NCBI GenBank assembly: GCA_035402825.1
Contig: DAONDZ010000001.1
Location: 172,839 to 236,838 of the forward strand
Reading direction: 5' to 3'
DNA from: a bacterium
GTDB lineage: Bacteria; Patescibacteriota; Patescibacteriia; Patescibacteriales; UBA12465
Length of the DNA: 64,000 nt
Part shown: positions 23,747 to 48,517 of the stretch, in pieces
How positions within the stretch are numbered: position 1 is the stretch's first letter
Layout: each line of letters begins with the position of its first letter
Program-made: the position numbers and the translations under genes
The notes under the pieces: generated by a model
Database searches by the model: none
What the model was told of the DNA's origin: nothing
What the model saw: the letters and a program-made list of their open reading frames with translations, nothing else

Positions 23747-24883
23747 TTAATCTCTGACGCATCTTATAGAAAGTCCTTGGGGATGGAGGATATAATTGCG
23801 CCAGACAGCATAGCCGGGAACAAAGTTTCTCTGCCAGGCTTTGTTGGTGTCAATTAAAGACGATGTCCAAAGCGTTGGCTCAGCTCCTAGATATCTAAAA
23901 AATGGTGAGGCGGTATAACGAGTACCGGAGAGGAGAACGTCAAAACCGGATGAGCCGCCGATTAATAGTTTGGTTCCTTCATCGGTGCCGCGAAATCCGG
24001 TGGTGGTGTTGTCATAGGGGAAGTCAGTGGCGCAAGTGCCGGAGGTGCAAACCGCTCTTTCTAAAGTAGTCCATTCGTCATGGGAAGGAATATGCCAACC
24101 ATCAGGGCAAATGCCTTGAGCGCTGGGGGTGAGGGAATATTGCATGGCTTCGTCCCATTGGTATAAGCCGCCGTGGAGCTGGCAATAGGTATAATCACTC
24201 AAATCTCCGTCGGGATCATAGCAGTATTTTTCCAATATTGGCGTGGGGCTGTTATCGGTTTGATCGACTGAACCATCTATAATAGTGCCGATATTCATGT
24301 TTTCTTTTAACCAGCATTGATTGCCGATTTTTATGGTTGCATATTCACAGGTGTCATAATTGGGAGCGTCAGCATTGCAGGTATATCCCAGCAGATTATC
24401 AGAGTTAAGGGTCAAGGTGTCGCCGCAGATAAAACAGCTGCCGCTGCTAATAGTATCCTGGTTGGCACAGTTATTCCCAGCCGCTATTTCCCCGGTTTTG
24501 TTGCCTAAACAGAAATTAATAGTATATTTTTGGTTGTTGTTAGTGGCTTCATAAGTATAGGCGTTAGTGGTGGTAGAGCAGCCGCCATCATTAGGAGTGG
24601 TTGGCGCCGGGACATTGAGGTAAGTGATGCCGGAAGAGCCCACCAAAGGCTGTCCGAAGGTTAGGGTAGCGGGGTAGGACCCTTCTTGACGGTGGTAGCG
24701 TTCCAAAGCTTGTTGGATAGAAATGATATCGCTCGCTCTTTTGTTATCACGGCTTTTAACTCGAGATTGATTATAGGCCACCGTAGCTAGCGCAGTGATG
24801 AGGCCAATGGTCGCCAAGACTAATAATATTTCGATTAGCGTAAAAGCAGAACGATTTTTAGTTTTAGATAAATTTCTGAACAT
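23747..24883 (-). CDS. Type IV pilin-like protein with a C-terminal FISUMP-type domain (paralogue 3)
   Basis: Prepilin-type N-terminus SAFTLIEILLVLATIGL. C-terminus GGLYQWDEAMQY...GICPDGWHIPSHDEW...GFDVLLSGTRY...LSIRCVRD. Confidence 0.75.
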   Translation of the reverse strand: MFRNLSKTKNRSAFTLIEILLVLATIGLITALATVAYNQSRVKSRDNKRASDIISIQQALERYHRQEGSYPATLTFGQPLVGSSGITYLNVPAPTTPNDGGCSTTTNAYTYEATNNNQKYTINFCLGNKTGEIAAGNNCANQDTISSGSCFICGDTLTLNSDNLLGYTCNADAPNYDTCEYATIKIGNQCWLKENMNIGTIIDGSVDQTDNSPTPILEKYCYDPDGDLSDYTYCQLHGGLYQWDEAMQYSLTPSAQGICPDGWHIPSHDEWTTLERAVCTSGTCATDFPYDNTTTGFRGTDEGTKLLIGGSSGFDVLLSGTRYTASPFFRYLGAEPTLWTSSLIDTNKAWQRNFVPGYAVWRNYILHPQGLSIRCVRD

Positions 24884-29361: not shown

Positions 29362-30045
29362 ATGGATACAATAACCCCTAAAACCGGATTTATTTTGATT
29401 GATAAGCCCCAGCACATCAGTTCACATGCGGTGGTTAGTATTTTGCGCCGCATTACCAACACTAAGCGCATCGGCCATGCCGGTACTTTGGATCCGTTAG
29501 CCACCGGCTTGCTCATTTTAGCTATTGGCCGCGAGGCGACTAAAAGATTAGATGAGTTCGCTAAGCAAGATAAAGAATATATTGCCGCTATCCGTTTCGG
29601 TTTTGAAAGTGTCAGCTACGATGCCGAAGGCCCGATTACCCAAATATATTCTGGACTTGGCTTGGAAAAAGAAAAAATTATGGACGCCCTGTCTTCTTTC
29701 TTGGGAAAAATTGAACAATATCCGCCTAAGTATAGCGCCAAAAAACAAAATGGCAAACGACTATATCAATTGGCTAGAAAGAACCAACCGATAGAATTAA
29801 AGCCTAGCCTAGTGGAGATTAAAGGTTTGGACATTTTAGACTATAGCTGGCCGGATTTAAAGGTCAAAGTTAATTGTGGCACCGGTACCTATATCCGATC
29901 TTTGGCCCATGATTTAGGAAAGAAATTAGGTTGTGGCGCCTATCTCAGCGATTTGCGCCGAACTAGAATTGGTGCACAGACTATTGACCGAGCCGTGGAA
30001 TTGGATACAATGGATAGGGATAATTGGGTAAAATATCTCTTTTAG
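29362..30045 (+). CDS. truB: tRNA pseudouridine(55) synthase
   Basis: GHAGTLDPLATGLLILAIG catalytic Asp motif. The last base of the stop codon is the first base of the next tRNA. Confidence 0.9.
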   Translation: MDTITPKTGFILIDKPQHISSHAVVSILRRITNTKRIGHAGTLDPLATGLLILAIGREATKRLDEFAKQDKEYIAAIRFGFESVSYDAEGPITQIYSGLGLEKEKIMDALSSFLGKIEQYPPKYSAKKQNGKRLYQLARKNQPIELKPSLVEIKGLDILDYSWPDLKVKVNCGTGTYIRSLAHDLGKKLGCGAYLSDLRRTRIGAQTIDRAVELDTMDRDNWVKYLF

Positions 30046-30128
30046 CCGAAGTGGCGAAATTGGTAGACGCGCTAGTTTCAGGTACTAGTCCCAGCGATGG
30101 GTTGGGGGTTCGAGTCCCCCCTTCGGCA
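30045..30128 (+). tRNA. tRNA-Leu (anticodon CAG)
   Basis: Acceptor gccgaag/cttcggc, anticodon arm ctagt-ttCAGgt-actag, long variable arm, gttcgagtc. Confidence 0.9.
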
Positions 30129-30349
30129 CTGCAGAAAACGGGCAATAGCCCGTTTTTGTTTTGCTCTTGATGTGATATAATTAGGATATAAATAGATAAA
30201 ATATATGAGATCTAAAAAAACCGCGAGCGTTTCTGAGACTGAAAAAAATATTAAGCAGCTGATTGCCGATTATCAAAATCGCCTTTTGATGTTGCAAGCC
30301 GAACAGCAGAAGATAATTGACGCTAATTCTTCTTCTCAAACTTAAAGAT

Positions 30350-33300
30350 ATGAATGATAAAAATAATTTTGAAAATTTAAATAATCAGCCCAGTCCAGAA
30401 TCTGCAGAAAAAACTCCGGAGCAATTATTGGAGAAATTGGAACCGTTGTTGGACGGCTTGTCTCAGGTTGAGGAAGCTATTGAAGATCGAGGGTTGGAGT
30501 ACATTGATAACCAGCCGGATAAGAAATCAAAATCGGCGGTTAAAATGCAGCAGATTATTGAAACCCTACAAAAGGAAAGTCTAGTGCTTTTAAAAAAGAT
30601 TTCTAAAGAACTGGCCAGCTATCCTCGGGCAGTGGCCGATACTTTTCGAGATAACTATATTAATAACAGCGCGGCTCGCAAGAATCGCAAGTTTTCCAAA
30701 AATGATTTTTCAAATCAAGAAAAAAGTTCCACTAATCAAACTGATGAAGAGGCTTCCGCTGATTGGATTAAGTCCAATAAAATATTTGAAGCTAATTTGC
30801 GGGAAGCCAAAGGATTAATAACCATGATGAACTCTCAGAATTGGGGAAATTCGGCTAAAGCCGATGCGGCGTTTTTGAGTTCCCAGCGCTTGCTGGAAAC
30901 CTTGATTAATCAGGCTAATTTTTTGTACCGCAATGCAGAAATTTCGAGATTATTAGAAATTTTAGAAAAAAACTCTACTACCGTTCTTAGCCCTATTTCT
31001 CATCTGGATAAGATTATAGAAACCCAATGTACCCATTTTACCGTTGCCGGAGGCATCCCTTCCTATTATAACATTGAATATGACAATCCGACTGACCAGA
31101 AAATTAAAGAGGTTTTTTCTGATGATCCCTTTTTGATTTTGAATTATTTAAAAAATGCGCCTGACTCAGTTCGCAATTTACGAAGTGGGTTGTTGTTGGG
31201 ACAGCTGGATGTTTTAATGGAAAAATACCCTAGTCCTGGAGTTTGGCCGGTTTTTATTGGCCAGGCTTTTAAGCGGGCGATTAATATTAACCCGGAGAAA
31301 TATTTAAATGATCCGGACAAGCGAGCTTATCTGTTTTCTGTTTTTAAAAATAGTTTTGCTAAAGGAGAAACCAGAGAATTCGGGGATCTTTATCGTTTCT
31401 ATGACGAGTTCCAGGGAGTTGATAAACAAGAACGGGAAGAACTAATTGACCGCATGCGTCATACTAACGAAGAAGACATTAAATTATCAATGTTGCCCTT
31501 GACCCCGGCGGAAATTAAAAAGTTAGCGCCGGAAAATCCTGGTCTTCAATTTTTCTTTCATAAAGAATTAGGACTAACCGCTGATGAAAGGCTGGTGATT
31601 TTGCAGGAACAAATTCAAAAGACTACTACTAGTCGCGCCTATTGTTTCCTGGTTCGTTTAGCTAGCTCTTTTTCTGATTGCCTAGCGGGGTTAGATTCGG
31701 CTAAAGTGGAGGAATCACTTAACAAATTAATTGCCATAACCTCTAGAGGGTCTCAATTAGAAGATTTGCAAGAATTATTAATATTATTTGAGAAAAATAA
31801 TATTCCGGCGCAATATCGCGACAGCTTAATTTCCGCTTACGCTGGAAATTTTAATAACCCCGGTGTCTTGTTGGACGTGATGAATAAAAATATTGATGCT
31901 TCCGGAGCGGCTAGGTGGGTTCAAAAGCAACCGGGATTGGCGGATAAGTTAGAACCAGCTTTTTATCGCACGGCTAAGTTTGACGATTTGCGCCATTTTT
32001 TCTTTCAAGTGCTAGACGGCCGCCCCGCAGCCGATATGGATTTATTAACCAAGACCTATGCTGAACAAATTGCCTTTTTGCCCGCCCAGGATTTTATTGA
32101 TCTTTTCTTGGTGAGCAAGAAGATTGATAAGCGCTATGCTCCGCTGTTTATTCTCAAAACCAGTAGTCTTCGTGATCAATTAACTGAAGCCTTGAATGTG
32201 GGTTCTATTACCCAAGATGATTATGATTGGACGGCCCAGGAGTTTTTTAAGCTCGGTTCGGCTGAGACGGCTAATAAGTTTTTGAATGATTGTTTCGCTC
32301 CTGGGAAGATGAGCCCGGAATCTCGGCTAGAGGCTTTAGAGAGCTATGGAGTTTCTCGGGCCCATCGGGACCCGTCTATACTGGAGGCCATTAACAGCAA
32401 TTTTCTTAAGTTCGAGGAAAAGAAGGTTCTGGCGGCCAGTTTTTTTAATGAATTTGTTAAATATAAGGAGAACTATCTTTATATACTTCAAGATATTAGG
32501 GCTTTCAGAACTTTTGAAATATTTTTCACCCCGGAAGAGCGAAAAGAATATTTCAAAAAAATAGTTGCTGACCCAGAGCCCGCGGTAATTATCCGGTTGT
32601 TACTTGATTATTTCAATGATGCTCAAAGAGAGCGAATAATAACGGCTAATATAGCGCCGGAAGATTGGCAACAATTCTTCGCGGCGGCTTTGAATACCGA
32701 AGACTTGGGAGTTGAAGAAATATTTTTAGCCAATATCAATTCACTATCCGCAGGCGAACGCGAGCTATTTTCTAAACGGATAACTTCTCGGGACAATATT
32801 TTGGTTCCCCGGGGCGCCAAGGAGGATAATAGCAGTAGCTCCGCGTTTTTAAGTAGATTATTAAATAATTTACAAGAAGATGCTTCCGATCAAGATAATT
32901 CTCAGTCTTTATCCCGTGAACTATTGGCTAAGATTTTTTCCGGACCAAACTTGTCTGCCTCAGTTCTTAATTCTTTAATTGATCGTAGCGATAAATTAAA
33001 AATTGCCGGTCAGGATGTTTTTGATGAGTACATTGATCAATGCGCCCAGGCCGATGGCGGGGTCTATACTTTGCGAATTTTGGATCATCTGGGCCGGCTA
33101 GATCTGGATATTCTGTCCGCTGAACAAATTAAGACGCTGTCCTATAAATTTCTGCGAGAGAAAGGTATGAGTTTTGAGGTTTATGGATTATATTTTAATT
33201 CTGACCCGGAGCGGCCGATTTTCTATTTAGACCAAGCGGGAATGGATCTGGCTTTGCAGAAAGCTGTCATCGGCGATGGCAACGATCAAATTAAATTTTT

Positions 33301-35413
33301 GCGTTTGCAAAGAGAGGCGCGCGGTCGGGGACTGGTGGCTTGCAGTCCGGAACAAGAACAACAGACTATTTTAGGCATTATGAGTTATAATAGCTCCTGG
33401 GTTTCGGCGCGGGAACTGTTTGATTTTGATAATGAGATGTTTTTAAACGGCGCCCGGGAGTTAATAACGAGGAATAAGGCTAGTCGAGAGTTAGTGAAGT
33501 CCATTTTAACTTCAGGCATTGAGATTTCGGGTTCTTTGGCGCCAGAAATTATTGCTCATAGTTTTGGCGACCGGCTTGAATTCTTTTTGCCTTATCTCTG
33601 CCAGGCCTATGGTCAGGATCCTAAATTGCGAGAGCAGATTAAAGATCAAGTTAAAGGAGTTGAGGGCTCGGATGCCAAAACAAGACTGAACACTATTCTT
33701 TTACAAGAAGACTTCTTAAGCCCAGCCGAATTAAAAGCTCTTTATGACGAAGTTCGGGAAAGGAAGAGCCCCCGCGAACAAGTTTTGGCTAATGCGGAAA
33801 TTTTTGGGTCGTTTGTGACGGCTAATAAAATGGAAGAAATCAGCGCTTTTATCGAAGGCGAAGACCGAGAGGCCGAAGCCGCCGTCAAGAATATTTCCGA
33901 GTTTGTCGCTCGCTATCCTTTGCAGAGCAAGGGAAGAACGATAGCAGTAATGCTCTTTGCCAGAGAATATCTGCCGGAGCTCGGCGTGGGAGAGATTATC
34001 AAAAGAGTGGGACGGAGTTTGAACAAGTATGAAAAGATTTTGGCTGACTTTGAATATAATAATATTCCCGCCGGTTTGCAGGCTTCTATTGGTATGGAGT
34101 ATGAAATCACTGATTCCACCGCTTCCGGGTACAAAGAATTAACCGAAGGTAATTTGGCCACTGATATTTCTCGTTTAAGCGCGGCTGCTCATATTGGCTC
34201 CGGCAATGATGCTGTCCACGAAATTGCTACTCGTCCAGCCACTAATCCCTATTTATTACTTTTAGAGATGAAGCTTCTAAATGATATTGAATATGTGGAC
34301 TTCAACTTTGATCGCTCTCCATTATATCAGAAAGGTTCTCGCGGTTATCACTTAACTATTGGCGGCGAGAGCGGCTTAAATGTTAATGCTAATACCTTCT
34401 TTATCCAAAACGCTCTATTGGCCGCTTCTTGGGGCGGAGTCCATGCCGGTGAGCTGGGCAAAAAAACTTCCGGCGGCCGCGGCGTCACTTTGCGCCAGCG
34501 TGATGCCAGCCAGACTCATAATGTGAAGATATTTGAAAAGACAACTCCGTCGGTGGAATTGCGTTCTTTGTCTATTGATAAGATGGAATCATTTCAGCGC
34601 TCAGTGCTCAGCGCCTACAACAGCGCTATCGCCATTCAAGCCTTAGAAAAATATACCGCTCTTTCTTCTTATCAACTCCCTGAAGTTTTTGGTGAGAGTA
34701 AAAATGCAGAGGAGTTTTTCTTAAAGTTGAGTGAGGAGGTTCATGGCTTGATGCCCGAAACTTTTGGTGAAAGCAAAGCAAAAATTGAAACAGCTAGCGC
34801 TGAAGTTAAAGAGATTATATATTCTTGGGCTAAATTGGTTACCGATGTCCAGAAGGCCGTGGAATATCATAATAATGAATTTTTGAGCGGCGAGACCTAT
34901 GGCTACTTAGATAAAGAGATTTGGGTGGATACACAATCTTTTGGCGGCGAATATAATCAGAAACGTTTTGAAGAAGTGGTGAGCTCTATTGATCCCACAT
35001 TATCGGTGGAAGAATATACTAATACCACTAAGATTAAGTTTAATGATTTATTTGCCAGCTTCAGCAAGGAATTAGCCGATAGTTTTACCAAAATAAATAA
35101 TTTATACCTCAAGCCCACCACTAAAAGCCGAGAACAGGGGAAGGATGGAACAAAAGAGCAAAATATTTTTGCCGGCGATCAGGCTAACGCTATCGCTATG
35201 TTACGCACCACGAAGATGAATAATGAAACCCTGGAAGGCCGCAATGATAGGGTCTATTTAGAGGGCACGATTTTTGATACGGTCGGCGACAAACGGCAGG
35301 GATATTATTACATCCAAGGAGCCAGCGAGAAGATGCTGACCCATGCCGTTCAGATTGCTCTTTTGGAGTTTAATCGGAGCATGGAGAAAATACTGCATAA
35401 GCGGGCAGCCTAA
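30350..35413 (+). CDS. Giant protein (1687 aa from ATG 30350): long helical N-terminal region plus a C-terminal glutamine-synthetase-like amidoligase-type domain
   Basis: Uninterrupted ORF. Ordered motifs near the C-terminus: SIGMEYEI, AVHEIATRP, RGYHLTIGG, GRGVTLRQR, SVELRSLS (nt about 34070-34640). Confidence 0.7.
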   Translation: MNDKNNFENLNNQPSPESAEKTPEQLLEKLEPLLDGLSQVEEAIEDRGLEYIDNQPDKKSKSAVKMQQIIETLQKESLVLLKKISKELASYPRAVADTFRDNYINNSAARKNRKFSKNDFSNQEKSSTNQTDEEASADWIKSNKIFEANLREAKGLITMMNSQNWGNSAKADAAFLSSQRLLETLINQANFLYRNAEISRLLEILEKNSTTVLSPISHLDKIIETQCTHFTVAGGIPSYYNIEYDNPTDQKIKEVFSDDPFLILNYLKNAPDSVRNLRSGLLLGQLDVLMEKYPSPGVWPVFIGQAFKRAININPEKYLNDPDKRAYLFSVFKNSFAKGETREFGDLYRFYDEFQGVDKQEREELIDRMRHTNEEDIKLSMLPLTPAEIKKLAPENPGLQFFFHKELGLTADERLVILQEQIQKTTTSRAYCFLVRLASSFSDCLAGLDSAKVEESLNKLIAITSRGSQLEDLQELLILFEKNNIPAQYRDSLISAYAGNFNNPGVLLDVMNKNIDASGAARWVQKQPGLADKLEPAFYRTAKFDDLRHFFFQVLDGRPAADMDLLTKTYAEQIAFLPAQDFIDLFLVSKKIDKRYAPLFILKTSSLRDQLTEALNVGSITQDDYDWTAQEFFKLGSAETANKFLNDCFAPGKMSPESRLEALESYGVSRAHRDPSILEAINSNFLKFEEKKVLAASFFNEFVKYKENYLYILQDIRAFRTFEIFFTPEERKEYFKKIVADPEPAVIIRLLLDYFNDAQRERIITANIAPEDWQQFFAAALNTEDLGVEEIFLANINSLSAGERELFSKRITSRDNILVPRGAKEDNSSSSAFLSRLLNNLQEDASDQDNSQSLSRELLAKIFSGPNLSASVLNSLIDRSDKLKIAGQDVFDEYIDQCAQADGGVYTLRILDHLGRLDLDILSAEQIKTLSYKFLREKGMSFEVYGLYFNSDPERPIFYLDQAGMDLALQKAVIGDGNDQIKFLRLQREARGRGLVACSPEQEQQTILGIMSYNSSWVSARELFDFDNEMFLNGARELITRNKASRELVKSILTSGIEISGSLAPEIIAHSFGDRLEFFLPYLCQAYGQDPKLREQIKDQVKGVEGSDAKTRLNTILLQEDFLSPAELKALYDEVRERKSPREQVLANAEIFGSFVTANKMEEISAFIEGEDREAEAAVKNISEFVARYPLQSKGRTIAVMLFAREYLPELGVGEIIKRVGRSLNKYEKILADFEYNNIPAGLQASIGMEYEITDSTASGYKELTEGNLATDISRLSAAAHIGSGNDAVHEIATRPATNPYLLLLEMKLLNDIEYVDFNFDRSPLYQKGSRGYHLTIGGESGLNVNANTFFIQNALLAASWGGVHAGELGKKTSGGRGVTLRQRDASQTHNVKIFEKTTPSVELRSLSIDKMESFQRSVLSAYNSAIAIQALEKYTALSSYQLPEVFGESKNAEEFFLKLSEEVHGLMPETFGESKAKIETASAEVKEIIYSWAKLVTDVQKAVEYHNNEFLSGETYGYLDKEIWVDTQSFGGEYNQKRFEEVVSSIDPTLSVEEYTNTTKIKFNDLFASFSKELADSFTKINNLYLKPTTKSREQGKDGTKEQNIFAGDQANAIAMLRTTKMNNETLEGRNDRVYLEGTIFDTVGDKRQGYYYIQGASEKMLTHAVQIALLEFNRSMEKILHKRAA

Positions 35414-35430
35414 AATATTGTTAACTACCA

Positions 35431-35459
35431 AAAACAGCTCCTTGCGGAGCTGTTTTTTC
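35431..35459. terminator. Intrinsic terminator after the giant gene
   Basis: aaaacagctcc / ttgc / ggagctgtttt followed by ttct. Confidence 0.7.
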
Positions 35460-35465
35460 TTGCTG

Positions 35466-35538
35466 GGCGGGGTACGGGAATCGAACCCGTAACTCAAGTG
35501 CCACAAACTTGCGTGATAACCGTTTCACCAACCTCGCC
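35466..35538 (-). tRNA. tRNA-His (anticodon GTG) with genomically encoded G-1
   Basis: Reverse complement g-gcgaggt...caagt-ttGTGgc-acttg...acggg-ttcgatt-cccgt-accccgc-c. The extra 5' G sits opposite the C discriminator. Confidence 0.85.
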
Positions 35539-36992: not shown

Positions 36993-37118
36993 AGTCAATT
37001 AATTTAAAATTATAGTTTTATAAAATAATTATCTCTATTTTTAGAGATTTTCTCAGTTCTCGCTATTACTGAGTGGCATGTGTTATAATATGAATACTAA
37101 GTATTAATTTTGTTTTAT

Positions 37119-38216
37119 ATGAAATCTAAAAAAGCCTTTACTCTCATTGAACTCCTCGTTGTGATTGCCATCATTGGCATCCTCGCTACTATTTCCGTTA
37201 TTGCTTTAAACAATGCTCGCGCTAAATCGCGTGATGCTAAAAGAATTGGAGATATCAAGCAAGTCTCAACTGCTTTAGAGCTTTTCTTTAATGATAAAAA
37301 TCGTTATCCGACTGTGGAAGAATGGAATACCGGACAGATTTTTTCTACTACTACCGGCGCTACCTCGACTTATATGCAAATCATTCCAGCCGCCCCAACG
37401 CCTAACGATGGCTCTTGCACAACTGGACAAAACACTATTAGCTATACTCCAACACTCGATGGAGCTTCCTATACTGTCTCTTTTTGTTTAGGCAATACTA
37501 CTGGGGCCCTTGATTCCGGACCGAAGTGCTTGACTCCTGGAGGCGTTTTGGATGTAGATTGTTCAATCACTATTCCTGCCGCCCCTAGCTTTGCTTGTGG
37601 CACTGATAGTGTGACTTATGAAGGTGAAGTCTATCCTACTGTTTATATTGATAATACTGGTGGCCACAATTTGAGCCTTCCTGGCCAATGTTGGTTCGCC
37701 AAAAACCTCAATGTGGGAACTATGGTTGCTGGTGCTGCCAATCAAGCTGATAACGGTATTATAGAAAAGTATTGTTATAATGATAATACTTCCAATGAAT
37801 GTGCTACTGATGGCGGTTTGTATCAATGGGATGAAGCTATGCAATATTCCGTGGCTGAATCGGCTCAGGGCATTTGCCCTGACGGGTGGCATTTGCCGAC
37901 TGACGCAGAACAAAATACCTTGGATCAAAATTTAAATGACACCACTTGTAATGCTAATAGAACTGGAGATTGGGGTTGTGCTAACGCCGGTACTAAATTA
38001 CAGGACGGTGGGACTTCTGGACTTAATGTTCTCCGAGCCGGCACTCGTTATATCAATGCGGCGTTCTACGCTCGAGGGGTGTACACGATTTTTTGGTCAT
38101 CGTCTATTAGCGGTTCGGCCGCCTGGGGTCGGAATGTGACCACTAACAACGCTGCCGTTTACCGCAATTCTTATGACCGAACCACCGGCTATTCTGTGCG
38201 TTGTCTTCAGGACTAA
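37119..38216 (+). CDS. Type IV pilin-like protein with a C-terminal FISUMP-type domain (paralogue 1, not matched by the TR)
   Basis: KAFTLIELLVVIAIIGILA prepilin-type N-terminus. GGLYQWDEAMQY...GICPDGWHLPTDAEQNTL...YSVRCLQD. ATG 37119 preferred. Extended -10 TGtTATAAT at 37081-37089. Confidence 0.8.
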   Translation: MKSKKAFTLIELLVVIAIIGILATISVIALNNARAKSRDAKRIGDIKQVSTALELFFNDKNRYPTVEEWNTGQIFSTTTGATSTYMQIIPAAPTPNDGSCTTGQNTISYTPTLDGASYTVSFCLGNTTGALDSGPKCLTPGGVLDVDCSITIPAAPSFACGTDSVTYEGEVYPTVYIDNTGGHNLSLPGQCWFAKNLNVGTMVAGAANQADNGIIEKYCYNDNTSNECATDGGLYQWDEAMQYSVAESAQGICPDGWHLPTDAEQNTLDQNLNDTTCNANRTGDWGCANAGTKLQDGGTSGLNVLRAGTRYINAAFYARGVYTIFWSSSISGSAAWGRNVTTNNAAVYRNSYDRTTGYSVRCLQD

Positions 38217-38248
38217 TTCGACTATTTTGATCTTTTGGAAGGCCGAAT

Positions 38249-38267
38249 CACTAGAATATTTCTAGTG
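38249..38267 (+). terminator. Hairpin downstream of paralogue 1
   Basis: cactagaa / tat / ttctagtg. No strong T run, so terminator function is uncertain. Confidence 0.35.
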
Positions 38268-38273
38268 GTATAA

Positions 38274-38399
38274 ACAAAAAGAGAACTGGCACAGGCCAGT
38301 TCTCAGAAAGTACTCCTCCGAGAAGAAATATCGAAACATTTAAACGAAATTGTTGAGGAAATTAAACTTTGGTCGATGTTTTTGACATTGATAAATTAA
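38274..38399 (+). pseudogene. 3'-terminal remnant of a serine recombinase gene spanning junction J2
   Basis: Reads TKRELAQASSQKVLLREEISKHLNEIVEEIKLWSMFLTLIN*, compared with NKRELATASSPKVPLREKISKRFNEIIGEIKRWARFLDECPF* at the end of the 43659-45236 recombinase. Nothing upstream of it is recombinase-like. Confidence 0.65.
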
Positions 38400-38415
38400 T
38401 ATTACTTTTTATAAC
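38388..38415 (+). promoter_or_regulatory. Candidate promoter in the element left arm
   Basis: TTGATA, 16 nt spacer, TATAAC. Identical 29-mer at 36958-36986. A perfect TTGACA also sits at 38382-38387. Confidence 0.4.
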
Positions 38416-38489
38416 TATAAAAGTCAACAAAGTTAAAATCCTCTTTTGTTTATTCAAAAACCTAATTAAAATTTACTCCCACTATTGTC

Positions 38490-38499
38490 GGGGGGGGGG
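38490..38499 (+). repeat. G10 homopolymer tract in the promoter region of the DGR target gene
   Basis: tcGGGGGGGGGGcagaaaaTGtTATAAT. The tract ends 10 nt upstream of the -10 hexamer. Confidence 0.9.
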
Positions 38500-38506
38500 C
38501 AGAAAA

Positions 38507-38515
38507 TGTTATAAT
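38507..38515 (+). promoter_or_regulatory. Extended -10 element (TGtTATAAT) upstream of the DGR target gene
   Basis: The same TGtTATAAT is found upstream of paralogue 1 (37081-37089). Confidence 0.5.
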
Positions 38516-38551
38516 AAAACTAGATTAAGCTAATTATTAATTTATTTTAAT

Positions 38552-39697
38552 ATGTTAAAGAGAAAAGCCTTCACTCTAGTAGAACTATTGGTAGTAATAG
38601 CCATCATTGGCCTATTAGCTACTCTATCAGTCATTGCTCTAAATAGTGCTAGAGCTAAGTCTAGAGATGCTAAGAGAGTAGCTGATGTTAAACAGATCTC
38701 TACGGCTCTAGAGCTATTCTTCAATGATGCTGGCAGATACCCCACTGATCTAGAATGGGCTAGTGGCTCTTTAGAGTATAATGGTCAGACCTATCTCTCT
38801 ATTATCCCTTCTGCCCCTACCCCTGCTGATGGTAGCTGTGACTCTACTACCAACTCTTTTTCTTATACCCAGGATAATAGTGGTGAATCATATACTCTCA
38901 CCTTCTGTACTGGTGGAGTAGTGGGTTCTCTTACTGCTGGTGAGCTTTGTGCTACCCCGGGTGGGATGGCGGGGTGTGGGGGAGGCGGGGGCTGTATTCT
39001 TGATTGTACTAACAAAAACTGTGGTGATGATGGCTGCGGTGGTAGCTGTGGTGTTTGTACCGGCAATGATGTCTGTACTAATGGTACCTGTACTACTCCT
39101 CCTTTTGCTTGCGGAGACTCTGTCTCCTATGGCGGTGAATCATATCCCACGGTTCTGATCGGAGCCCAGTGTTGGTTTGCTAAGAATTTAAATGTTGGGG
39201 ATATGGTGACCGGGGTCACCCCTCAGTCAAACAACGCTATTGTAGAAAAATATTGTTATAATGATGACGCTTCTCATGAATGCGCCACCTACGGTGGCCT
39301 ATACCAATGGGATGAAGCTATGCAATATTCTGTCACCGAAGGGGCCCAAGGTATTTGTCCTGACGGTTGGCATATCCCAACTGACGCTGAACAAAATACT
39401 TTAGACCAAGGTTTAAATGATACTACTTGTAATGCTAATAGAATTTTAGCTTGGGACTGTGCCAATGCCGGTACCAAATTACAGGCTGGAGGTACTTCTC
39501 ATTTTGAAGGCCTCTTGGCCGGCTACCGCAATACCAATGGGTCGTTCAACGATCAAGGGACGTACGCGCTCTTCTGGTCATCTACTATTAGTGGACCGGA
39601 TGCCTGGGATCGGCTCTTGTACACTGGCTACGCGACCGTTCGCCGCGGTCATGATGACCGAGCCTACGGCTTTTCCGTGCGTTGCCTTCAGGACTAA
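38552..39697 (+). CDS. DGR variable (target) protein: type IV pilin-like N-terminus, Cys/Gly-rich linker, FISUMP-type C-terminal domain
   Basis: KAFTLVELLVVIAIIGLLA; CGGGGGCILDCTNKNCGDDGCGGSCGVCTGNDVCTNGTCT; GGLYQWDEAMQY...GFSVRCLQD. The last 178 nt form the VR. Confidence 0.9.
   Translation: MLKRKAFTLVELLVVIAIIGLLATLSVIALNSARAKSRDAKRVADVKQISTALELFFNDAGRYPTDLEWASGSLEYNGQTYLSIIPSAPTPADGSCDSTTNSFSYTQDNSGESYTLTFCTGGVVGSLTAGELCATPGGMAGCGGGGGCILDCTNKNCGDDGCGGSCGVCTGNDVCTNGTCTTPPFACGDSVSYGGESYPTVLIGAQCWFAKNLNVGDMVTGVTPQSNNAIVEKYCYNDDASHECATYGGLYQWDEAMQYSVTEGAQGICPDGWHIPTDAEQNTLDQGLNDTTCNANRILAWDCANAGTKLQAGGTSHFEGLLAGYRNTNGSFNDQGTYALFWSSTISGPDAWDRLLYTGYATVRRGHDDRAYGFSVRCLQD
39518..39695 (+). other. 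DGR variable region (VR)
   Basis: 178 nt aligned without gaps to TR 40277-40454. There are 16 mismatches, each opposite a TR adenine. Confidence 0.9.
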
Positions 39698-39700
39698 TTC

Positions 39701-39727
39701 GACTATTTTGACTATTTTGACTATTTT
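39701..39727 (+). repeat. Three tandem copies of gactatttt just after the target stop codon
   Basis: gactatttt gactatttt gactatttt. Paralogue 1 has one copy in the same place (taattcgactattttga is shared). Confidence 0.85.
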
Positions 39728-39752
39728 TCCGCCTCGTGTAAGCGAGGCGGAA
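39727..39752 (+). promoter_or_regulatory. GC-rich hairpin downstream of VR (candidate DGR target-recognition cruciform and/or terminator)
   Basis: ttccgcctcg / tgtaag / cgaggcggaa: a 10-bp perfect stem. With a t-g closing pair the loop becomes GTAA (GNRA-type). Confidence 0.55.
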
Positions 39753-39768
39753 TTAATTAAATTTTTCT

Positions 39769-40113
39769 ATGGCTACCTATGATAATTTGCCGGTGTATAA
39801 AGCCAGTTATGATTTACTGCTAGAAATATTCACTTTCAGTAAGAACATGGACAAAGAATATAAATATACCATTGGAGAAGATTTGAAAAAAGAAACCACG
39901 GCCATGATTACCAATATCTATCGCGCCAACTGCAACCAAAATAAAAAAGAGTTAATTCAAAGTGGTCGGGAAAATTTGGAAGTCATCAGATTATATTTAC
40001 GCCTAATTAAAGATTTGAAACAAATAAATTTGTTAAAATTTGTAAAGATTAATGAAATTATTGAGTCAATTTCCAAGCAATTAAATTTTTGGCAAAGTGC
40101 CATGAAATCATAA
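39769..40113 (+). CDS. avd: DGR accessory variability determinant (four-helix-bundle, 23S rRNA IVS protein family)
   Basis: 114 aa helical protein (PVYKASYDLLLEIFTFSKNMDKEYKYTIGEDLKKETTAMITNIYRAN...) sitting between target and TR as in canonical DGRs. Confidence 0.75.
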   Translation: MATYDNLPVYKASYDLLLEIFTFSKNMDKEYKYTIGEDLKKETTAMITNIYRANCNQNKKELIQSGRENLEVIRLYLRLIKDLKQINLLKFVKINEIIESISKQLNFWQSAMKS

Positions 40114-40276
40114 TGGGCCAGAGTCGTCATCGGTTACGGCCAGGGCGAGCGTGCCTCACTAGTCCAATAGTCCACTAAATTTTCTAAATTTAGTAATTGA
40201 CGGGGCAACCTGTCATTCTGCTGATTTTTTAGATAATATCAAATCAGCCGAAGAGGTTAGCGATTATTATAAAAGA

Positions 40277-40454
40277 GCCGGCAACCGCAATACCAATGGG
40301 TCGTTCAACAATCAAGGGACGAACGCGAACTTCTGGTCATCTACTATTAGTGGACCGGATGCCTGGAATCGGAACTTGAACACTGGCAACGCGACCGTTA
40401 ACCGCAATCATAATGACCGAGCCAACGGCTTTTCCGTGCGTTGCCTTCAGGACT
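40277..40454 (+). other. DGR template region (TR)
   Basis: Encodes AGNRNTNGSFNNQGTNANFWSSTISGPDAWNRNLNTGNATVNRNHNDRANGFSVRCLQD in the VR frame, with 15 AAY codons. Flanked by hairpins at 40178-40198, 40220-40248 and 40461-40487. Confidence 0.9.
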
Positions 40455-40508
40455 GGTCAAAAGGAGCCATATATCAATGGCTTCTTTTATTTTACTAAAA
40501 TATTTTTT

Positions 40509-41684
40509 ATGTCCGACAAACTTCTGGTTGACCTTTTTCAAGCCTATTACGACGCCCGACGCTATAAAAGAAATACAATGAGCGCTCTTAACTTTGAGAT
40601 TAATTTGGAGCAAAATATATTTGAATTGTATCGGGAGATAAAAAATAATACTTATCAAATTAGTCCCAGCCTAGCTTTTATTATCTTTGACCCGGTGCAG
40701 AGAGAAATTATCGCCTCGCCCTTTCGGGATCGAGTCGTGCATCACCTGGTTTTTAATTATATCAACCCCATTCTTGAAAATCTCTTTATTTCTGACAGTT
40801 ATAGCTGTCGCCAAGGCAAGGGTATTAGCTACGGAGTTAAGCGAGTCGCTCATTTTGTCCGCTCCAGTTCGCAAAATTATAGAGTTGATAATTATATTCT
40901 CAAATTGGATATTTCCGGCTATTTTATGAGTATTAACCAATCTGTTTTATATGATAAGGTAGAAAATTATTTATTAAGGCATAATGTTGATTACCCCTTT
41001 GACCTAAAATTAATTTCAGCCCTGCTAAAGAGAATTGTTTTTCACGATTATATTAAAGATTGCGTTATAAGAGGTGGAAAGACCAACTGGAAAAAATTAC
41101 CCCGCAACAAGAGTCTATTTTTCACGCCCCCGGGTTTTGGTTTGCCCATTGGCAATTTAACCTCGCAATTATTTAGTAATGTTTATTTAAATGATTTTGA
41201 CCATTATATTAAGCGGACTTTGAAATTTAAGTATTATGGTCGTTATGTCGATGACTTAATCATTATTGACGGTAGTAAAGAAAGGCTCCAAATAGCTATG
41301 GCCAAAATTGCGGAATATTTATCAACGAATCTAAACTTAAAAATTCACCCCAGAAAAATCTATTTACAGCCCTATGCCAAAGGCGTTAATTTTTTAGGCG
41401 GGATTATTAAACCCCACAGAATTTATGTCCGCCACCGGACTAAAACCAGTTTTTATCGCTCAGCGACTAAGGCTAATAATATTCTGAAGAATGTAGATGT
41501 AGAAAGGAAAGCCCTCAGGAAAATTTTATCCAGTTTTAATTCCTATTTAGGGGTGTTTGGGCAATATCAGACCTATAATTTACGCCGTAAAATATTGGAC
41601 AACAAGCTATCCTCGGATTTTTGGCGTTATTTTAGACTTGGGAAAGGTGAGTCAAGATATAGAAAAATTGTTTTAAGAAAATAA
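40509..41684 (+). CDS. DGR reverse transcriptase
   Basis: LPIGNLTSQLFSNVYLNDFD (the IGxxxSQ motif typical of DGR RTs) and YGRYVDDLIII (YxDD). ATG 40509 chosen because the longer track ORF (40413) starts inside the TR. Confidence 0.9.
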   Translation: MSDKLLVDLFQAYYDARRYKRNTMSALNFEINLEQNIFELYREIKNNTYQISPSLAFIIFDPVQREIIASPFRDRVVHHLVFNYINPILENLFISDSYSCRQGKGISYGVKRVAHFVRSSSQNYRVDNYILKLDISGYFMSINQSVLYDKVENYLLRHNVDYPFDLKLISALLKRIVFHDYIKDCVIRGGKTNWKKLPRNKSLFFTPPGFGLPIGNLTSQLFSNVYLNDFDHYIKRTLKFKYYGRYVDDLIIIDGSKERLQIAMAKIAEYLSTNLNLKIHPRKIYLQPYAKGVNFLGGIIKPHRIYVRHRTKTSFYRSATKANNILKNVDVERKALRKILSSFNSYLGVFGQYQTYNLRRKILDNKLSSDFWRYFRLGKGESRYRKIVLRK

Positions 41685-41690
41685 TTATAC

Positions 41691-42306
41691 TTATCCCCAG
41701 CAAAATGCTAGCAAATTTAAATATTTAAAAAAGTTTTTCAAATTCCCAATAAATTCACCCCTTAACCTTACCGCTAATTTATGCTATGATACATTCAGAC
41801 TTAATCAATAAAAATATATAACCTCGGGACCCATTGTTGAATAGATGTCGCTCGCATGAAACGCAAAATAAAAAAATAAAACTCATAAAATAATATCCCC
41901 TGTAAATTAGCAAAGTCTTTCTTTGCCAATTGAAACTAATTAACCAGCATTTGTCCGTGCTCGGTTTTTTTGTTTTGGCAAAGACTATTAAATTTCGTCG
42001 TCGCCTGTTTAGATAGCGAAACAGGTTAGTTGATTTCTTTGGTGTAAACATAAGCGTGTAGTTTGGTTTTAGCCTATTAGTGGTACTTGCCCGTCGCTAA
42101 TGGCTAGTTCTGTTATTAATTTCTCATTTTTGACCGTCCCCCAAGCATTGTTTTTTAGTTTTTTTTCGGCGAGGCTTGTCCGCTCGCCGAAAAAATAAAA
42201 ACAAGCTGGGGGCGGTAAATGAGATTTTAGACAAAAGTAGTGTCCGTTTGTCGTGTGCCTCTATTAGACTTGACTATAGGCACACTTAACGCCGTTATTA
42301 AACTCT
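41691..42306 (+). other. Conserved structured non-coding region upstream of Rep (copy 1): promoter, terminator-like hairpin, nested stem-loops, candidate replication origin
   Basis: Aligns with 47040-47682. TTAACC, 17 nt, TATGAT at 41762-41790. Hairpin plus T run at 41944-41976. Nested structure 42122-42224 (tctcattt...aaatgaga enclosing ttttttcggcgag/ctcgccgaaaaaa). Hairpin gtgtgcct...aggcacac at 42253-42285. Confidence 0.55.
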
Positions 42307-43098
42307 ATGGAAATTAAACCACGAGTTTATCGGCAGAAGCTGGTAGAGTCGGGTGATTATGTGGAAATATATGATTATGAGAATTTCATTAAAATTAATC
42401 AAAAGAGAAAACGAAGAAGAAATACAACCAAGAGACCTAAATTTATCGGCCCACCTACTTATTTAGATGTGCTTTGTCGAGAAACAAAAAATGGTTTTTC
42501 TCTAAGGCGAACTCGGTCAAATATTGTTAGATTGGTAAATTCTAACCCCGATTTAAAAGTATTTATTACTCTCACCTTTGATAGCCATAAATTCGGGGAT
42601 AAGCCGTTTACTGATTTTAAGGAATGTAATTTGATATTTTCTAATTTCATTAAACGACTAAAAAGGAAATATCCCGATTTAAAATATTTGGCCGTGCCTG
42701 AATTTCAGAGCGACTATTATCACCGCACCAATATTAGAAAAGAATTTGGCGGTAATATTCACTATCATTTATTGTCTAATTTGCCGTTTATTGAAAATAC
42801 TCAATTAGAAAAAATCTGGGGCTACGGATTTATTAAAATCAATAATATCCGACAGGTGTCTGCTGTCGGTCCGTATGTGGCTAAATATGTCGGCAAAGAA
42901 TTGTTTGACGGTCGTTTAAATGGGAAAAAGAAATTGTTTTATTCTCGCACTCTTAATCGCTCTAAAATCATTATTACCTACTCAAAAATAAAAGAATATT
43001 TAAACAACTTAAAATCACCCCTCAAGCTTTTGCACGAGACAACTTACAAGTCCGAGTATCTCAGCAGAGCTCGCTATCGGCTCTATAAACAAGGATAG
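42307..43098 (+). CDS. HUH-superfamily rolling-circle replication initiator (two-tyrosine type), copy 1
   Basis: Motif 1 VFITLTF, motif 2 NIHYHLLS (HUH), motif 3 GPYVAKYVGKE (Y-x3-Y). Confidence 0.7.
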   Translation: MEIKPRVYRQKLVESGDYVEIYDYENFIKINQKRKRRRNTTKRPKFIGPPTYLDVLCRETKNGFSLRRTRSNIVRLVNSNPDLKVFITLTFDSHKFGDKPFTDFKECNLIFSNFIKRLKRKYPDLKYLAVPEFQSDYYHRTNIRKEFGGNIHYHLLSNLPFIENTQLEKIWGYGFIKINNIRQVSAVGPYVAKYVGKELFDGRLNGKKKLFYSRTLNRSKIIITYSKIKEYLNNLKSPLKLLHETTYKSEYLSRARYRLYKQG

Positions 43099-43138
43099 CA
43101 AAACTGATTTTGTTAATCATACGTTCATCTAAAATATA

Positions 43139-43288
43139 ATGACTATTGAGGCTCTTAAAAAATCAATAGTAGGTCGTGGGCGACAGTATTCCGATGACGA
43201 ATTGGAGACAATTAGACGCGACTTATACCAACTGGCTCATCTGCTAGTCGAATATTATTTTAATCAGCAAAAAATATTAATAAAATAA
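43139..43288 (+). CDS. Small helical protein (49 aa), YSDDELE-RRDLY family
   Basis: MTIEALKKSIVGRGRQYSDDELETIRRDLYQLAHLLVEYYFNQQKILIK. Conserved in E_C (48518-48673). Confidence 0.5.
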   Translation: MTIEALKKSIVGRGRQYSDDELETIRRDLYQLAHLLVEYYFNQQKILIK

Positions 43289-43298
43289 ATAAAAAATT

Positions 43299-43454
43299 AT
43301 GATGAGTATAAGTAAATTAAGAAAATTGTTAAGCGAAAAGGCAAATGAATACAGCGAAGAAGAACTAGAAGAAATGCGGCGAGATATTTATACATTTGCT
43401 AATCTAGCCTTTGATATTTATAAAGAGAATCCCAGGATATTAGATAAATATTAA
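43299..43454 (+). CDS. Small helical protein (51 aa), paralogue of the preceding ORF
   Basis: MMSISKLRKLLSEKANEYSEEELEEMRRDIYTFANLAFDIYKENPRILDKY shares the YS-EELE-x-RRD-Y-x-A-L core. Confidence 0.45.
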   Translation: MMSISKLRKLLSEKANEYSEEELEEMRRDIYTFANLAFDIYKENPRILDKY

Positions 43455-43461
43455 AGCGATA

Positions 43462-43658
43462 TTGTAAAAATAAAAATATATGTTATTATCCTTAATGGAC
43501 ATAACTTATAATAGCGGAAAGCTACTATTTTCTTACATCATAATGACGGCAGATAAGTCGTTTTGATATAAAGGGAGCAGTGGCTGTTTCAACAAGGCTT
43601 TCCGCTAAGTTGTGTCCAACAGTTCACTGCTCTCTTTTTATTATTAACTTTTAACCCT
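43462..43658 (+). promoter_or_regulatory. Promoter plus about 165-nt structured leader of the recombinase gene (copy 1)
   Basis: TTGTAA, 16 nt, TGtTATTAT (43462-43489). P1 ggacataactta/taagttgtgtcc; P2 agcggaaagc/gctttccgct; long-range gagcagtg (43575-82)/cactgctc (43625-32) followed by tctcttttta. Confidence 0.5.
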
Positions 43659-45236
43659 ATGCAAAAAGGAATAATCTATTACCGAGTTTCAACCGAAGAT
43701 CAGGCTCAAACTGGTGTTAGTTTGGAGCAACAGAAAAACGCTTGTCTTGATTACGCTCAAAAGAATGATATTGAAATACTAAAATTATTTCACGATGACG
43801 GAGTGTCTGCTAAAACTACCAAAAGAGCAGGACTTCAAGAACTATTGGCGTATTGTAAAAAGAATCATAAAGAGATTGATTGTTTGATAGTCTATAAAAT
43901 TGACCGGCTATCTCGAAATGTAAAAGACTACGCCACGCTATTAATGGCTTTGGGCGAATTTAACATTAAATTCATATCTACCACTGAAACCGTTAACGAA
44001 ACTTCTAGCGGAAAATTAATTGGCACAATTATGGCCTCGTTCGCTCAATTTGATAATGATGTTAGGAGCGAAAGAGTGTCGGTCTGTATGCTCGAAAAAG
44101 CCAAGCAGGGAATCTGGTGCTTCAAGGCCCCATTCGGTTATCTAAACAGCCGTGATGAGCAAAATAGAGCCATTATAACCATTGATAAGAGTAGGGCCGA
44201 GATTATTAAAATGGCCTTTGAAAAGTTTGCTACAGGATTATATAAAATGGAGGAAATACGGATAATGATGATTAAGGCCGGATTTAAAACCTGGCGAGAT
44301 AAAGAAATAAGCATCCAAAGTGTATTTAGAATTTTGATTGATAAGTTTTATATTGGAGTTATGACGATTAAAGGTCAAGAATATCAGGGGAGCCACGAGG
44401 TTTTTATTAATGAAAACACTTTTTATAAATGTCAAAAATTAATCCGCACTTCTAAACGAGGCGACAATATTGCTTTTAAACGCACTAATGAAATGTTCCC
44501 TCTCAGAAATTTTATTTTATGCCCCTCCTGTGGTCGTCCTTTTACTGCTTGCTTGTCCCGCAACTCCCGGGGTAATTATTACCCGTATTATAGATGTTAT
44601 AACAAAAACTGCCGAGGTTATAAATCAATATCTAAAGATAAATTGGAAAATAAGTTCAGCGATTATCTTAAAAGTATAGCGCCTGATCCTTATTTTGCCA
44701 AAGATTTAAGATTAATAGTTATTGAGGAATGGGAGAAAAAAATTAAAAACTATAAAGGCAGTTTGGTTGATGCCAAAAATCAGTTAGAAGTATTGGAATT
44801 AGAAAAGTCCAAATTGATAGAAATGAAGAAAAAGGACCTGCTTGACGACAATGATTTTAAAGAAGAAATGTCTAAAGTGAAGATTAAAATTGCTGAGAAA
44901 CAGTCTACCCCAGCTGAGAATATTCCTAATAATTTTGACATTAAGAAACAATCCAAAAAAGTTTTTGATATCATTCCCGACCTTGATAAATTTTATAATA
45001 GTCTTGGTTATTATGACAAACTTAAATTTCAGAGTTTGATTTTTCCCGAAAAGGTCTATTTTGATTTTTCAGAAAGTCGAACAGCTAAAATGTCGCTAAT
45101 ATTACAGAATAAAAGAGAACTGGCGACTGCCAGTTCCCCGAAAGTACCCCTCCGAGAGAAGATATCTAAACGATTTAACGAAATTATTGGGGAAATTAAG
45201 CGGTGGGCGAGGTTTTTGGACGAATGCCCATTTTGA
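43659..45236 (+). CDS. Large serine recombinase (integrase), copy 1
   Basis: Resolvase-type catalytic domain (IYYRVSTEDQ...VYKIDRLSRN), recombinase domain, zinc ribbon (CPSCGRPFTAC...YYRCYNKNC), coiled coil. Confidence 0.85.
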   Translation: MQKGIIYYRVSTEDQAQTGVSLEQQKNACLDYAQKNDIEILKLFHDDGVSAKTTKRAGLQELLAYCKKNHKEIDCLIVYKIDRLSRNVKDYATLLMALGEFNIKFISTTETVNETSSGKLIGTIMASFAQFDNDVRSERVSVCMLEKAKQGIWCFKAPFGYLNSRDEQNRAIITIDKSRAEIIKMAFEKFATGLYKMEEIRIMMIKAGFKTWRDKEISIQSVFRILIDKFYIGVMTIKGQEYQGSHEVFINENTFYKCQKLIRTSKRGDNIAFKRTNEMFPLRNFILCPSCGRPFTACLSRNSRGNYYPYYRCYNKNCRGYKSISKDKLENKFSDYLKSIAPDPYFAKDLRLIVIEEWEKKIKNYKGSLVDAKNQLEVLELEKSKLIEMKKKDLLDDNDFKEEMSKVKIKIAEKQSTPAENIPNNFDIKKQSKKVFDIIPDLDKFYNSLGYYDKLKFQSLIFPEKVYFDFSESRTAKMSLILQNKRELATASSPKVPLREKISKRFNEIIGEIKRWARFLDECPF

Positions 45237-45240
45237 TAAT
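45111..45240 (+). repeat. Junction J3 (attP-like hybrid between units E_B and E_C)
   Basis: aaaagagaactggcgactgccagttccccgaaa-gtacccc-tccgagagaagatatctaaacga.... The left half matches 50311-50350 and the right half matches 38317-38399. Confidence 0.65.
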
Positions 45241-45250
45241 TTTTTGGTGC

Positions 45251-45279
45251 TTGACTTTTCCTCAGAAAAGTGGTATTAT
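45251..45279 (+). promoter_or_regulatory. Candidate cargo promoter of unit E_C
   Basis: TTGACT, 17 nt, TATTAT. Confidence 0.5.
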
Positions 45280-45366
45280 TATATATTCAACAAATTAGAC
45301 TTACTGTTTAATTTTAGCTATAATAAAGGAATAATACAAGAGTAAATTTATACTAAAATTAACAAT

Positions 45367-45552
45367 ATGTTAAAAAATCAAGTGAATTCCAACGAAAATA
45401 AAGTTAACCTGATAAATGATATATATAATCAGGCTTTAAACGACATTGAAAAAATTAAAAAGGAAAGGGATAAGAAAATTAAGAATGTTCTGAAAGAAAT
45501 AGATAAAAAGCACGTAGCCAAGGCTCTCAGGGATATAAAAAATTCAAAATAA
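45367..45552 (+). CDS. Hypothetical K/N-rich small protein (61 aa)
   Basis: ORF only, with coiled-coil-like composition. Confidence 0.35.
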   Translation: MLKNQVNSNENKVNLINDIYNQALNDIEKIKKERDKKIKNVLKEIDKKHVAKALRDIKNSK

Positions 45553-45583
45553 TTTTTAATATTAAAAAATAACAATCAATTAT

Positions 45584-46969: not shown

Positions 46970-46999
46970 ATAAATTTTACAGGATTATAAAAAAACTAC

Positions 47000-47030
47000 A
47001 AAAACGCTTTTAAAAGGGCGTTTTTGTGTT
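47000..47030 (+). terminator. Intrinsic terminator after the E_C cargo
   Basis: aaaaacgc / ttttaaaagg / gcgttttt followed by gtgttt. Confidence 0.5.
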
Positions 47031-47039
47031 TAATAATAT

Positions 47040-48468: not shown

Positions 48469-48517
48469 CCTAGTTAATAAACTAAAGTTGAATACCGACC
48501 CATTCAATATTCAACTC

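Follow-up and report, generated by a model that had tools for sequence, protein, structure and literature searches.

The window, as we call the whole analysed stretch of 64,000 nucleotides (nt) from contig DAONDZ010000001.1 (assembly GCA_035402825.1), carries on its plus strand a giant gene preceded by a small open reading frame (ORF). The giant gene starts with an ATG at 30350 and ends with the TAA codon 35411-35413, the frame being open from 30317. Its product of 1687 amino acids (aa) is called in identical form in the NCBI record GCA_035353275.1 ("MAG TPA: hypothetical protein PKI61_00480 [bacterium]") and in a JGI metagenome. The protein is acidic, with 251 aspartates and glutamates and 200 lysines and arginines. 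No signal peptide and no transmembrane segment were found in it, and its 19-residue Kyte-Doolittle hydropathy peaks at 1.23. A first-pass annotation had described the product as an orphan with five motifs ordered as in glutamine synthetase (GS) and related ligases, encoded by a gene standing alone between two tRNA genes. The ORF, the five motifs, the tRNAs, the promoter-like TGaTATAAT and the terminator are all present as described there. The features are listed in Table 1.

The transcription unit is bounded by the promoter-like site upstream and by the terminator downstream. The hairpin of the latter has a folding energy of -20.4 kcal/mol (z = -2.8). The candidate extended -10 box would drive both the small ORF and the giant gene. 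It was not called by a two-hexamer consensus promoter scan, since there is no good -35 box. The small ORF is situated between this box and the giant gene, and its stop codon is 4 nt ahead of the giant-gene ATG. Thus the description of a gene standing alone holds for the tRNAs, the extended -10 box and the terminator, but the unit comprises two ORFs. The 46-aa product is a probable co-translated partner of the giant protein.

The giant protein is not an orphan. An exhaustive HMMER search with residues 488-1687 as the query produced 176 cluster representatives at E<=1e-3, 152 at E<=1e-10 and 137 at E<=1e-30. Nearly all complete members are 1000-1850 aa long. About 25 homologues align along the whole query, while the remainder share only the last ~550 residues (aa ~1130-1687 of the window protein). 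A word-indexed search with the full protein retrieved only the protein itself, and the same type of search with the family alignment retrieved only 10 fragments; the family emerged from the exhaustive HMMER search. The search for genomic loci was unsuccessful with a 20-sequence alignment, as it has no conserved stretch, and worked with a closer alignment of nine sequences. In the records of members and of 28 genomic loci the following names occur: Patescibacteria group, Nomurabacteria, Falkowbacteria, Paceibacterota, Kerfeldbacteria, Peribacteria, Gracilibacteria and Absconditabacterales. This is a previously undescribed family of giant proteins that is under selection and restricted to Patescibacteria-type genomes. 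A search of IMG/VR viral contigs turned up no relatives, and a phage origin was rejected on these grounds.

Some records within the family are unusual. Fifteen of the 28 genome loci (among L005-L032) are titled "uncultured Gammaproteobacteria bacterium" (TPA_asm metagenome-assembled genomes, MAGs). These titles look like placeholders or mis-assignments, since the encoded proteins are 51-60% identical to those of Patescibacteria-titled MAGs. Representatives P0115 and P0150 have tryptophan at conserved glycine positions of the family (e.g. WMEYEV, VWWEV). Probably their source organisms read UGA as glycine (code 25, Gracilibacteria/Absconditabacteria), and the sequences were translated with UGA as tryptophan. 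At two loci from one ENA project the giant gene is broken by a single in-frame TAA (L003, 5124-5138; L004, 7866-7868), which in L004 occupies the R/K/Q position of the family motif GL[RKQ]ASIG. A pseudogene, a misassembly or readthrough could account for this; the adjacent genes are intact, and thus general recoding is unlikely.

Conservation of the C-terminal module was derived from an alignment of 125 sequences. E1250, E1252, E1291, H1334 and E1403 are conserved in all of them, and this invariance holds across sequences that are only 28-45% identical. Thus the conservation expected of the motif residues in orthologues is observed, and the motifs go well beyond a chance occurrence. Position 1405 is always basic (R in 81 sequences, K in 44). 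P1240, P1296, N1299, P1300, E1306, D1317, N1319, D1410 and E1413 are each conserved in more than 95% of the sequences, and R1331 in 82%. Among the arginines of the GRGVTLRQR motif only R1382 and R1384 are conserved, and these moderately. The last 280 residues contain further near-invariant positions: H1507, N1508, F1511, E1515, N1584, K1588, N1613, R1649-x-GYY, Q1656, S1659 and Q1668.

The AlphaFold2 model of aa 1180-1687, built from a 20-sequence alignment, is confident (pLDDT 86.5, pTM 0.90). Its core consists of six strands (model residues 66-74, 104-106, 111-114, 153-160, 202-205 and 222-229) flanked by helices. The conserved motif residues are predicted to lie on five of them: E1250-x-E1252 on strand 1, E1291 (HEIA) on strand 3, H1334 (GYHLTIGG) on strand 4, R1382/R1384 (LRQR) on strand 5 and E1403-x-R1405 (SVELRSLS) on strand 6. 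In the C-terminal subdomain helices predominate and pLDDT exceeds 85 for the most part, with two low-confidence loops within model residues 412-433. In the published description of the carboxylate-amine ligase fold, helices pack against a curved antiparallel sheet of six strands, whose concave face bears the active site (PMC3511204); the core of the predicted model matches this description.

Foldseek hits 1 to 29 in the PDB are all GS (4lnn, 5dm3, 9n4x, human GS), YbdK (1tt4, 1r8g) or PafA (4bjr), with probabilities of 0.85-1.0 and a best E-value of 2.6e-3; plant glutamate-cysteine ligase is at rank 49. The named hits among the top 25 in BFVD are mostly annotated as amidoligases (best E 5.9e-4). 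At the level of the fold, the six-strand sheet, the structural similarity and the ordered set of candidate ligands all place the domain with GS, GCS2, Amidoligase and PafA, in a predicted structure and at TM-scores of 0.2-0.3. Thus the claim of a GS-like fold is borne out by the structural match and by residue conservation, but not by any profile match (see below).

The canonical GS ligands were read directly in the sequence of E. coli GlnA: E129/E131 (GPEPEFF), E212/E220 (HHHEVATAGQNEVATRF), H269 (GMHCHMS), R344 (ASIRIP) and E357/R359 (RIEVRFP). Following established GS enzymology, we take these to be the n1/n2 metal-site and ATP-binding residues. The giant protein and GlnA have the same order of putative ligands, ExE, E, H, R, ExR, and there are local echoes in the pairs HEIATRP/NEVATRF and SVELRSL/RIEVRFP; the best PDB fold hits, 4lnn and 5dm3, are also GS. 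However, the motifs are much more closely spaced in the giant protein (41/43/47/22) than in GlnA (92/48/74/14), there is no sequence-profile similarity, and instead of following the GS N-terminal beta-grasp domain, which is absent, the ligase domain stands behind 1130 helical residues.

The giant protein also resembles YbdK and the GCS2 family (PF04107). The fold hits 1tt4 and 1r8g span almost the entire 350-aa chain, the sizes are similar, and both proteins consist of a core with a helical C-terminal part. GIELEMQ, MLELATD, GQHVHVG and TVEVRVM of YbdK parallel GMEYEIT, VHEIATRP, GYHLTIGG and SVELRSL of the giant protein. The signature E-[IVL]-A-T following the third strand is common to the giant protein, GS and YbdK, unlike Amidoligase_2. 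On the other hand, YbdK is a stand-alone enzyme of 372 aa, and the giant-protein family has no Pfam match to GCS2 and an hhalign E-value of 0.66 with YbdK.

Amidoligase_2 (PF12224) is represented among the fold matches by the BFVD hits, and the amidoligase gp21 of phage tf has the motif order GFEVELE, GAEYIFDGP, STHLHMD, RR, SVEFRGS. However, phage tf has linked genes for GATase, ATP-grasp and gamma-glutamyl cyclotransferase proteins, which are missing from the giant-protein loci, the family is not found on viral contigs, and there is no PF12224 match. We found no paper connecting amidoligases with Patescibacteria. The substrates of PafA and Dop are proteins, on which these enzymes act from an open "cradle" formed by the sheet (PMC3511204). 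The giant protein resembles them in that PafA (4bjr) is among the fold hits and in that the enzyme has a small protein, helical or disordered, encoded beside it. However, the small upstream proteins have no conserved C-terminal GGQ or GGE, there is no proteasome or Mpa context, and no sequence similarity is seen. The unrelated ends of the small ORFs and the lack of a Pup_ligase match in Pfam do not fit a Pup ligase system.

The AlphaFold2 model of the N-terminal part of the protein (aa 1-1179; pLDDT 82.4, pTM 0.55) is entirely helical, with long helices up to aa ~235 followed by about 60 short ones, as in an alpha-solenoid. Foldseek with this model retrieved generic HEAT/ARM solenoids only (CAND1, mTOR, karyopherins, condensin subunits) with TM-scores of at most 0.2. 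For the modelled region this supports the description "alpha-solenoid" and nothing narrower. Even among the closest 20 homologues, column identity in the N-terminal ~1130 residues is 0.2-0.4 and few residues are invariant. Judged from the alignment, the evolution of this region is fast, and no motif in it looks catalytic. The sole strongly conserved patch is DDLRHFFFQVLDG at aa 545-557. In or near it, 20 full-length homologues show no variation at R548, H549 and F551, and more than 90% of them retain G557 and D564. The patch may be a binding site.

A Pfam scan of 46 family members identified no recognisable domain in 45 of them. The exception is P0139 (HMY80904.1) from Candidatus Absconditabacterales, where an ART-PolyVal ADP-ribosyltransferase domain (PF18760, residues 60-268, E 3.5e-15, above the cut-off) precedes the C-terminal ligase module. 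It is the sole additional domain in the scanned set.

Small upstream ORFs similar in position to that of the window were found at 11 loci. They are co-directional with the giant gene, encode 40-100 aa and end within ~10 nt of its start or overlap it. They have a common core hh..Y[KQR]..L..L. Leave-out hidden Markov models (HMMs) were run against 9689 six-frame segments. The ORFs of the window (W) and L008 were recovered with E-values of 0.01-0.02 as the best non-training match, and so were L007 (E 1e-4) and L003 (E 0.05). Overall, the groups W/L008, L004-L007 and L003 were recovered as best non-training matches at E-values from 1e-4 to 0.16, with 1.7 for L006. Recovery was weak for L009-L011, and the L028 ORF was not recovered by these models.

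In the clade L013-L026 no small upstream ORF is present; a fusion to the N-terminus of the giant protein was considered for this clade, but the similarity was unconvincing. No matches to the 46-aa product were found in Pfam, NCBIfam, PHROGs or PADLOC. The C-termini of the small proteins are not conserved (...SSSQT, ...NNDK, ...KEQI, ...KKEE, ...SLSL), and in particular there is no conserved C-terminal glutamate or glutamine. This argues against a Pup-like tag, and this identity was rejected.

Taken together, these data make it rather likely that the giant protein is a soluble protein with two functional halves, a fast-evolving N-terminal alpha-solenoid and a C-terminal module of ~550-560 residues that is a very divergent ATP-dependent carboxylate-amine ligase of the GS/GCS2/Amidoligase/PafA type. 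By analogy with these enzymes, E1250, E1252, E1291, H1334 and E1403 would bind two divalent metal cations, whereas the basic residues R1331, R1382/R1384 and R/K1405 would bind the ATP phosphates. Phosphorylation of the substrate carboxylate would give an acyl-phosphate, and subsequent attack by an amine would yield an amide or isopeptide bond. The solenoid of ~1130 residues most likely serves as a docking platform that delivers a large partner or substrate to the ligase. In the clade of the window, the 46-aa helical protein translated just upstream probably binds the giant protein as a subunit. A macromolecular partner or substrate is favoured because a scaffold of more than 1000 residues is retained in reduced genomes and because its sequence is plastic.

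A number of observations weigh against this interpretation. No match was found for the giant protein or its C-terminus in Pfam, NCBIfam, PHROGs or PADLOC, with Pfam silent on the giant protein even at E<=10. Individual scans of 20 diverse family members at the same threshold gave no match to Amidoligase_2, GCS2, Gln-synt_C or Pup_ligase. Searches against PDB sequences were empty, both by phmmer with the protein and by hmmsearch with the family profile. The hhalign comparison of the family profile with E. coli YbdK paired only SIGMEYEIT with TLGIELEMQ (16 columns), with a probability of at most 1%. A comparison set of 23 bona fide PF12224 proteins was collected with phage tf gp21 as the seed (alignment A4). 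Against it hhalign gave probabilities of 0.4-1% under default and relaxed settings and aligned no more than a single strand, either ExE or VE[LF]R; the comparison with the phage tf amidoligase itself was insignificant. Thus the profile relationship to PF12224 or PF04107 raised by the first-pass annotation could not be found, and by sequence the giant protein is outside every curated family. The Foldseek matches, in turn, have marginal E-values (~1e-3), TM-scores of 0.2-0.3 and a root-mean-square deviation above 8 A. Clustering of neighbouring ORFs from 30 loci revealed no conserved partner besides the small upstream ORF, and there is no conserved neighbour pointing to a substrate. Finally, the same fold and residues are used by hydrolases such as Dop.

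The last point leads to a quite improbable alternative, namely that the protein is a Dop-like amidase or deconjugase, or another hydrolase, which uses ATP or ADP only as a cofactor and removes an amide bond rather than making it. PafA, a ligase, and Dop, a deamidase and depupylase, have a common fold and active-site layout (PMC3511204), PafA is among our fold hits, and the two chemistries are inseparable from sequence. On the other hand, the superfamily consists mainly of ligases, as do the best fold hits (GS, YbdK, amidoligases), and no conjugation partner system was noticed in the vicinity. We infer ligase rather than hydrolase chemistry. It is also unlikely, but to a lesser degree, that the substrate is a small molecule, with a ligase of the gamma-glutamyl-amine or GCS2 type and a helical N-terminus serving only as a scaffold for oligomerisation or localisation. 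Although GS and YbdK, the closest solved structures, act on small molecules, and although the HEIAT/ELAT/EVAT echo links the giant protein to YbdK and GlnA, a variable extension of more than 1000 residues kept across more than 170 clusters is not readily explained in a metabolic enzyme, and there are no linked metabolic genes.

The ART-PolyVal domain of P0139, the fast evolution of the N-terminus and the epibiotic life of bacteria of the Candidate Phyla Radiation (CPR; general knowledge, e.g. PMC11665869) would suit an effector of inter-cellular conflict or host manipulation, whose ligase modifies a target in another cell. Polyvalent proteins, which phages and conjugative elements encode, are likewise giant, fast-evolving and composed of multiple parts. 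However, the giant protein has a single recognisable enzymatic domain, ART-PolyVal was seen in only one of the 46 scanned members, and there are neither viral-contig relatives nor a secretion signal. Moreover, the gene resides in variable chromosomal contexts among housekeeping genes (truB, tRNAs, mreBC, guaA), and the paper on polyvalent proteins does not mention amidoligases. This makes an effector role rather unlikely. A fortuitous resemblance of motifs, in a non-enzymatic structural module or under a wrong fold prediction, would agree with the lack of profile-level homology and the low TM-scores. Nevertheless, we consider it very improbable, as five charged or histidine residues are absolutely conserved at 28-45% identity, the model is of high confidence, and two independent structure libraries each put one superfamily on top. 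A more specific variant of the ligase model is a patescibacterial protein-conjugation system, in which the GS-like domain attaches a small molecule or the co-encoded ~46-aa protein to targets held by the solenoid. Functionally it would parallel pupylation but have its own origin within the CPR, and its targets might include host-contact or pilus components. Protein tagging of this kind is speculation, and we assign this scheme a very low probability.

The superfamily and its chemistry are already known. New are a family undetected by curated models, its restriction to Patescibacteria-type genomes, the combination of a solenoid with a ligase, and the co-encoded small protein. Much of bacterial diversity belongs to the ultrasmall CPR/Patescibacteria, whose large proteins mostly lack annotation. 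If the ligase assignment is correct, at least 176 clusters of giant "hypothetical proteins" receive a testable activity, ATP-dependent carboxylate-amine ligation, and the GS/amidoligase superfamily gains a very divergent branch and an alpha-solenoid-ligase architecture. The retention of a 5-kb gene in minimal genomes implies an important role. If the solenoid presents macromolecular substrates, the family would constitute a new system by which such minimal-genome organisms modify proteins or the envelope.

Table 1. Features of the giant-gene locus and of other regions of the window (positions in nt of the window)
Feature	Position	Strand	Remarks
Giant gene	30350-35413	+	1687 aa; acidic soluble protein; no signal peptide or transmembrane segment
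N-terminal region	30350-33886	+	aa 1-1179; all-helical AlphaFold2 model, no Pfam match
Conserved patch DDLRHFFFQVLDG	31982-32020		aa 545-557
GS-like ligase core (predicted)	33740-34579	+	aa ~1131-1410; from conservation, strands of the predicted model, fold matches and motif order
Motif GMEYEI	34091		aa 1248
Motif HEIATRP	34217		aa 1290
Motif GYHLTIGG	34343		aa 1332
Motif GRGVTLRQR	34475		aa 1376
Motif VELRSL	34553		aa 1402
C-terminal helical subdomain	34580-35410	+	aa 1411-1687; conserved family-wide (H1507-N1508..F1511...E1515, N1584, K1588, N1613, R1649-x-G-Y-Y..Q1656..S1659)
Small ORF	30205-30345	+	46 aa, helical, MRSKKTASVSETEKNIKQLIADYQNRLLMLQAEQQKIIDANSSSQT; gene call in both JGI and NCBI records
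Promoter-like extended -10 TGaTATAAT	30173-30181	+	read in the sequence; putative promoter
Intrinsic terminator	35430-35458	+	12-bp stem, UUGC loop, U-run; downstream of the giant-gene stop
tRNA-Leu(CAG)	30045-30129	+	flanks the giant gene upstream
tRNA-Leu terminator	30134-30157		precedes TGaTATAAT
tRNA-His(GTG)	35465-35537	-	flanks the giant gene downstream
Diversity-generating retroelement (DGR), complete	37110-41684		
DGR target genes	37110-38216 and 38552-39697		pilin-like, N_methyl + Fib_succ_major
DGR bAvd	39769-40113		
DGR reverse transcriptase	40413-41684		
DGR variable repeat (VR)	39518-39695		
DGR template repeat (TR)	40277-40454		
Possible second VR	38037-38214		
Third paralogue of the DGR target genes	23747-24883	-	
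Low-GC island	~40000-50400		33-37% GC
REP_ORF2-G2P-like gene	42307-43098		in the low-GC island
Large serine recombinase	43659-45236		in the low-GC island
tRNA-Arg(TCT)	50344-50416		near the end of the low-GC island

The neighbours of the giant gene vary by locus: truB and tRNA genes in the window, guaA and type IV pilus genes in L003, and hisS-mreBC in L004. Downstream of the giant gene the window contains a complete DGR, and a third paralogue of its target genes is located elsewhere in the window. TR and VR differ by 16 mismatches, all 16 of them at adenines of the TR. The possible second VR is more diverged, with 20 of its 43 mismatches at TR adenines. The DGR is followed by a low-GC island that ends near a tRNA-Arg gene and contains genes for a REP_ORF2-G2P-like protein and a large serine recombinase. 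This island is possibly an integrated mobile element.

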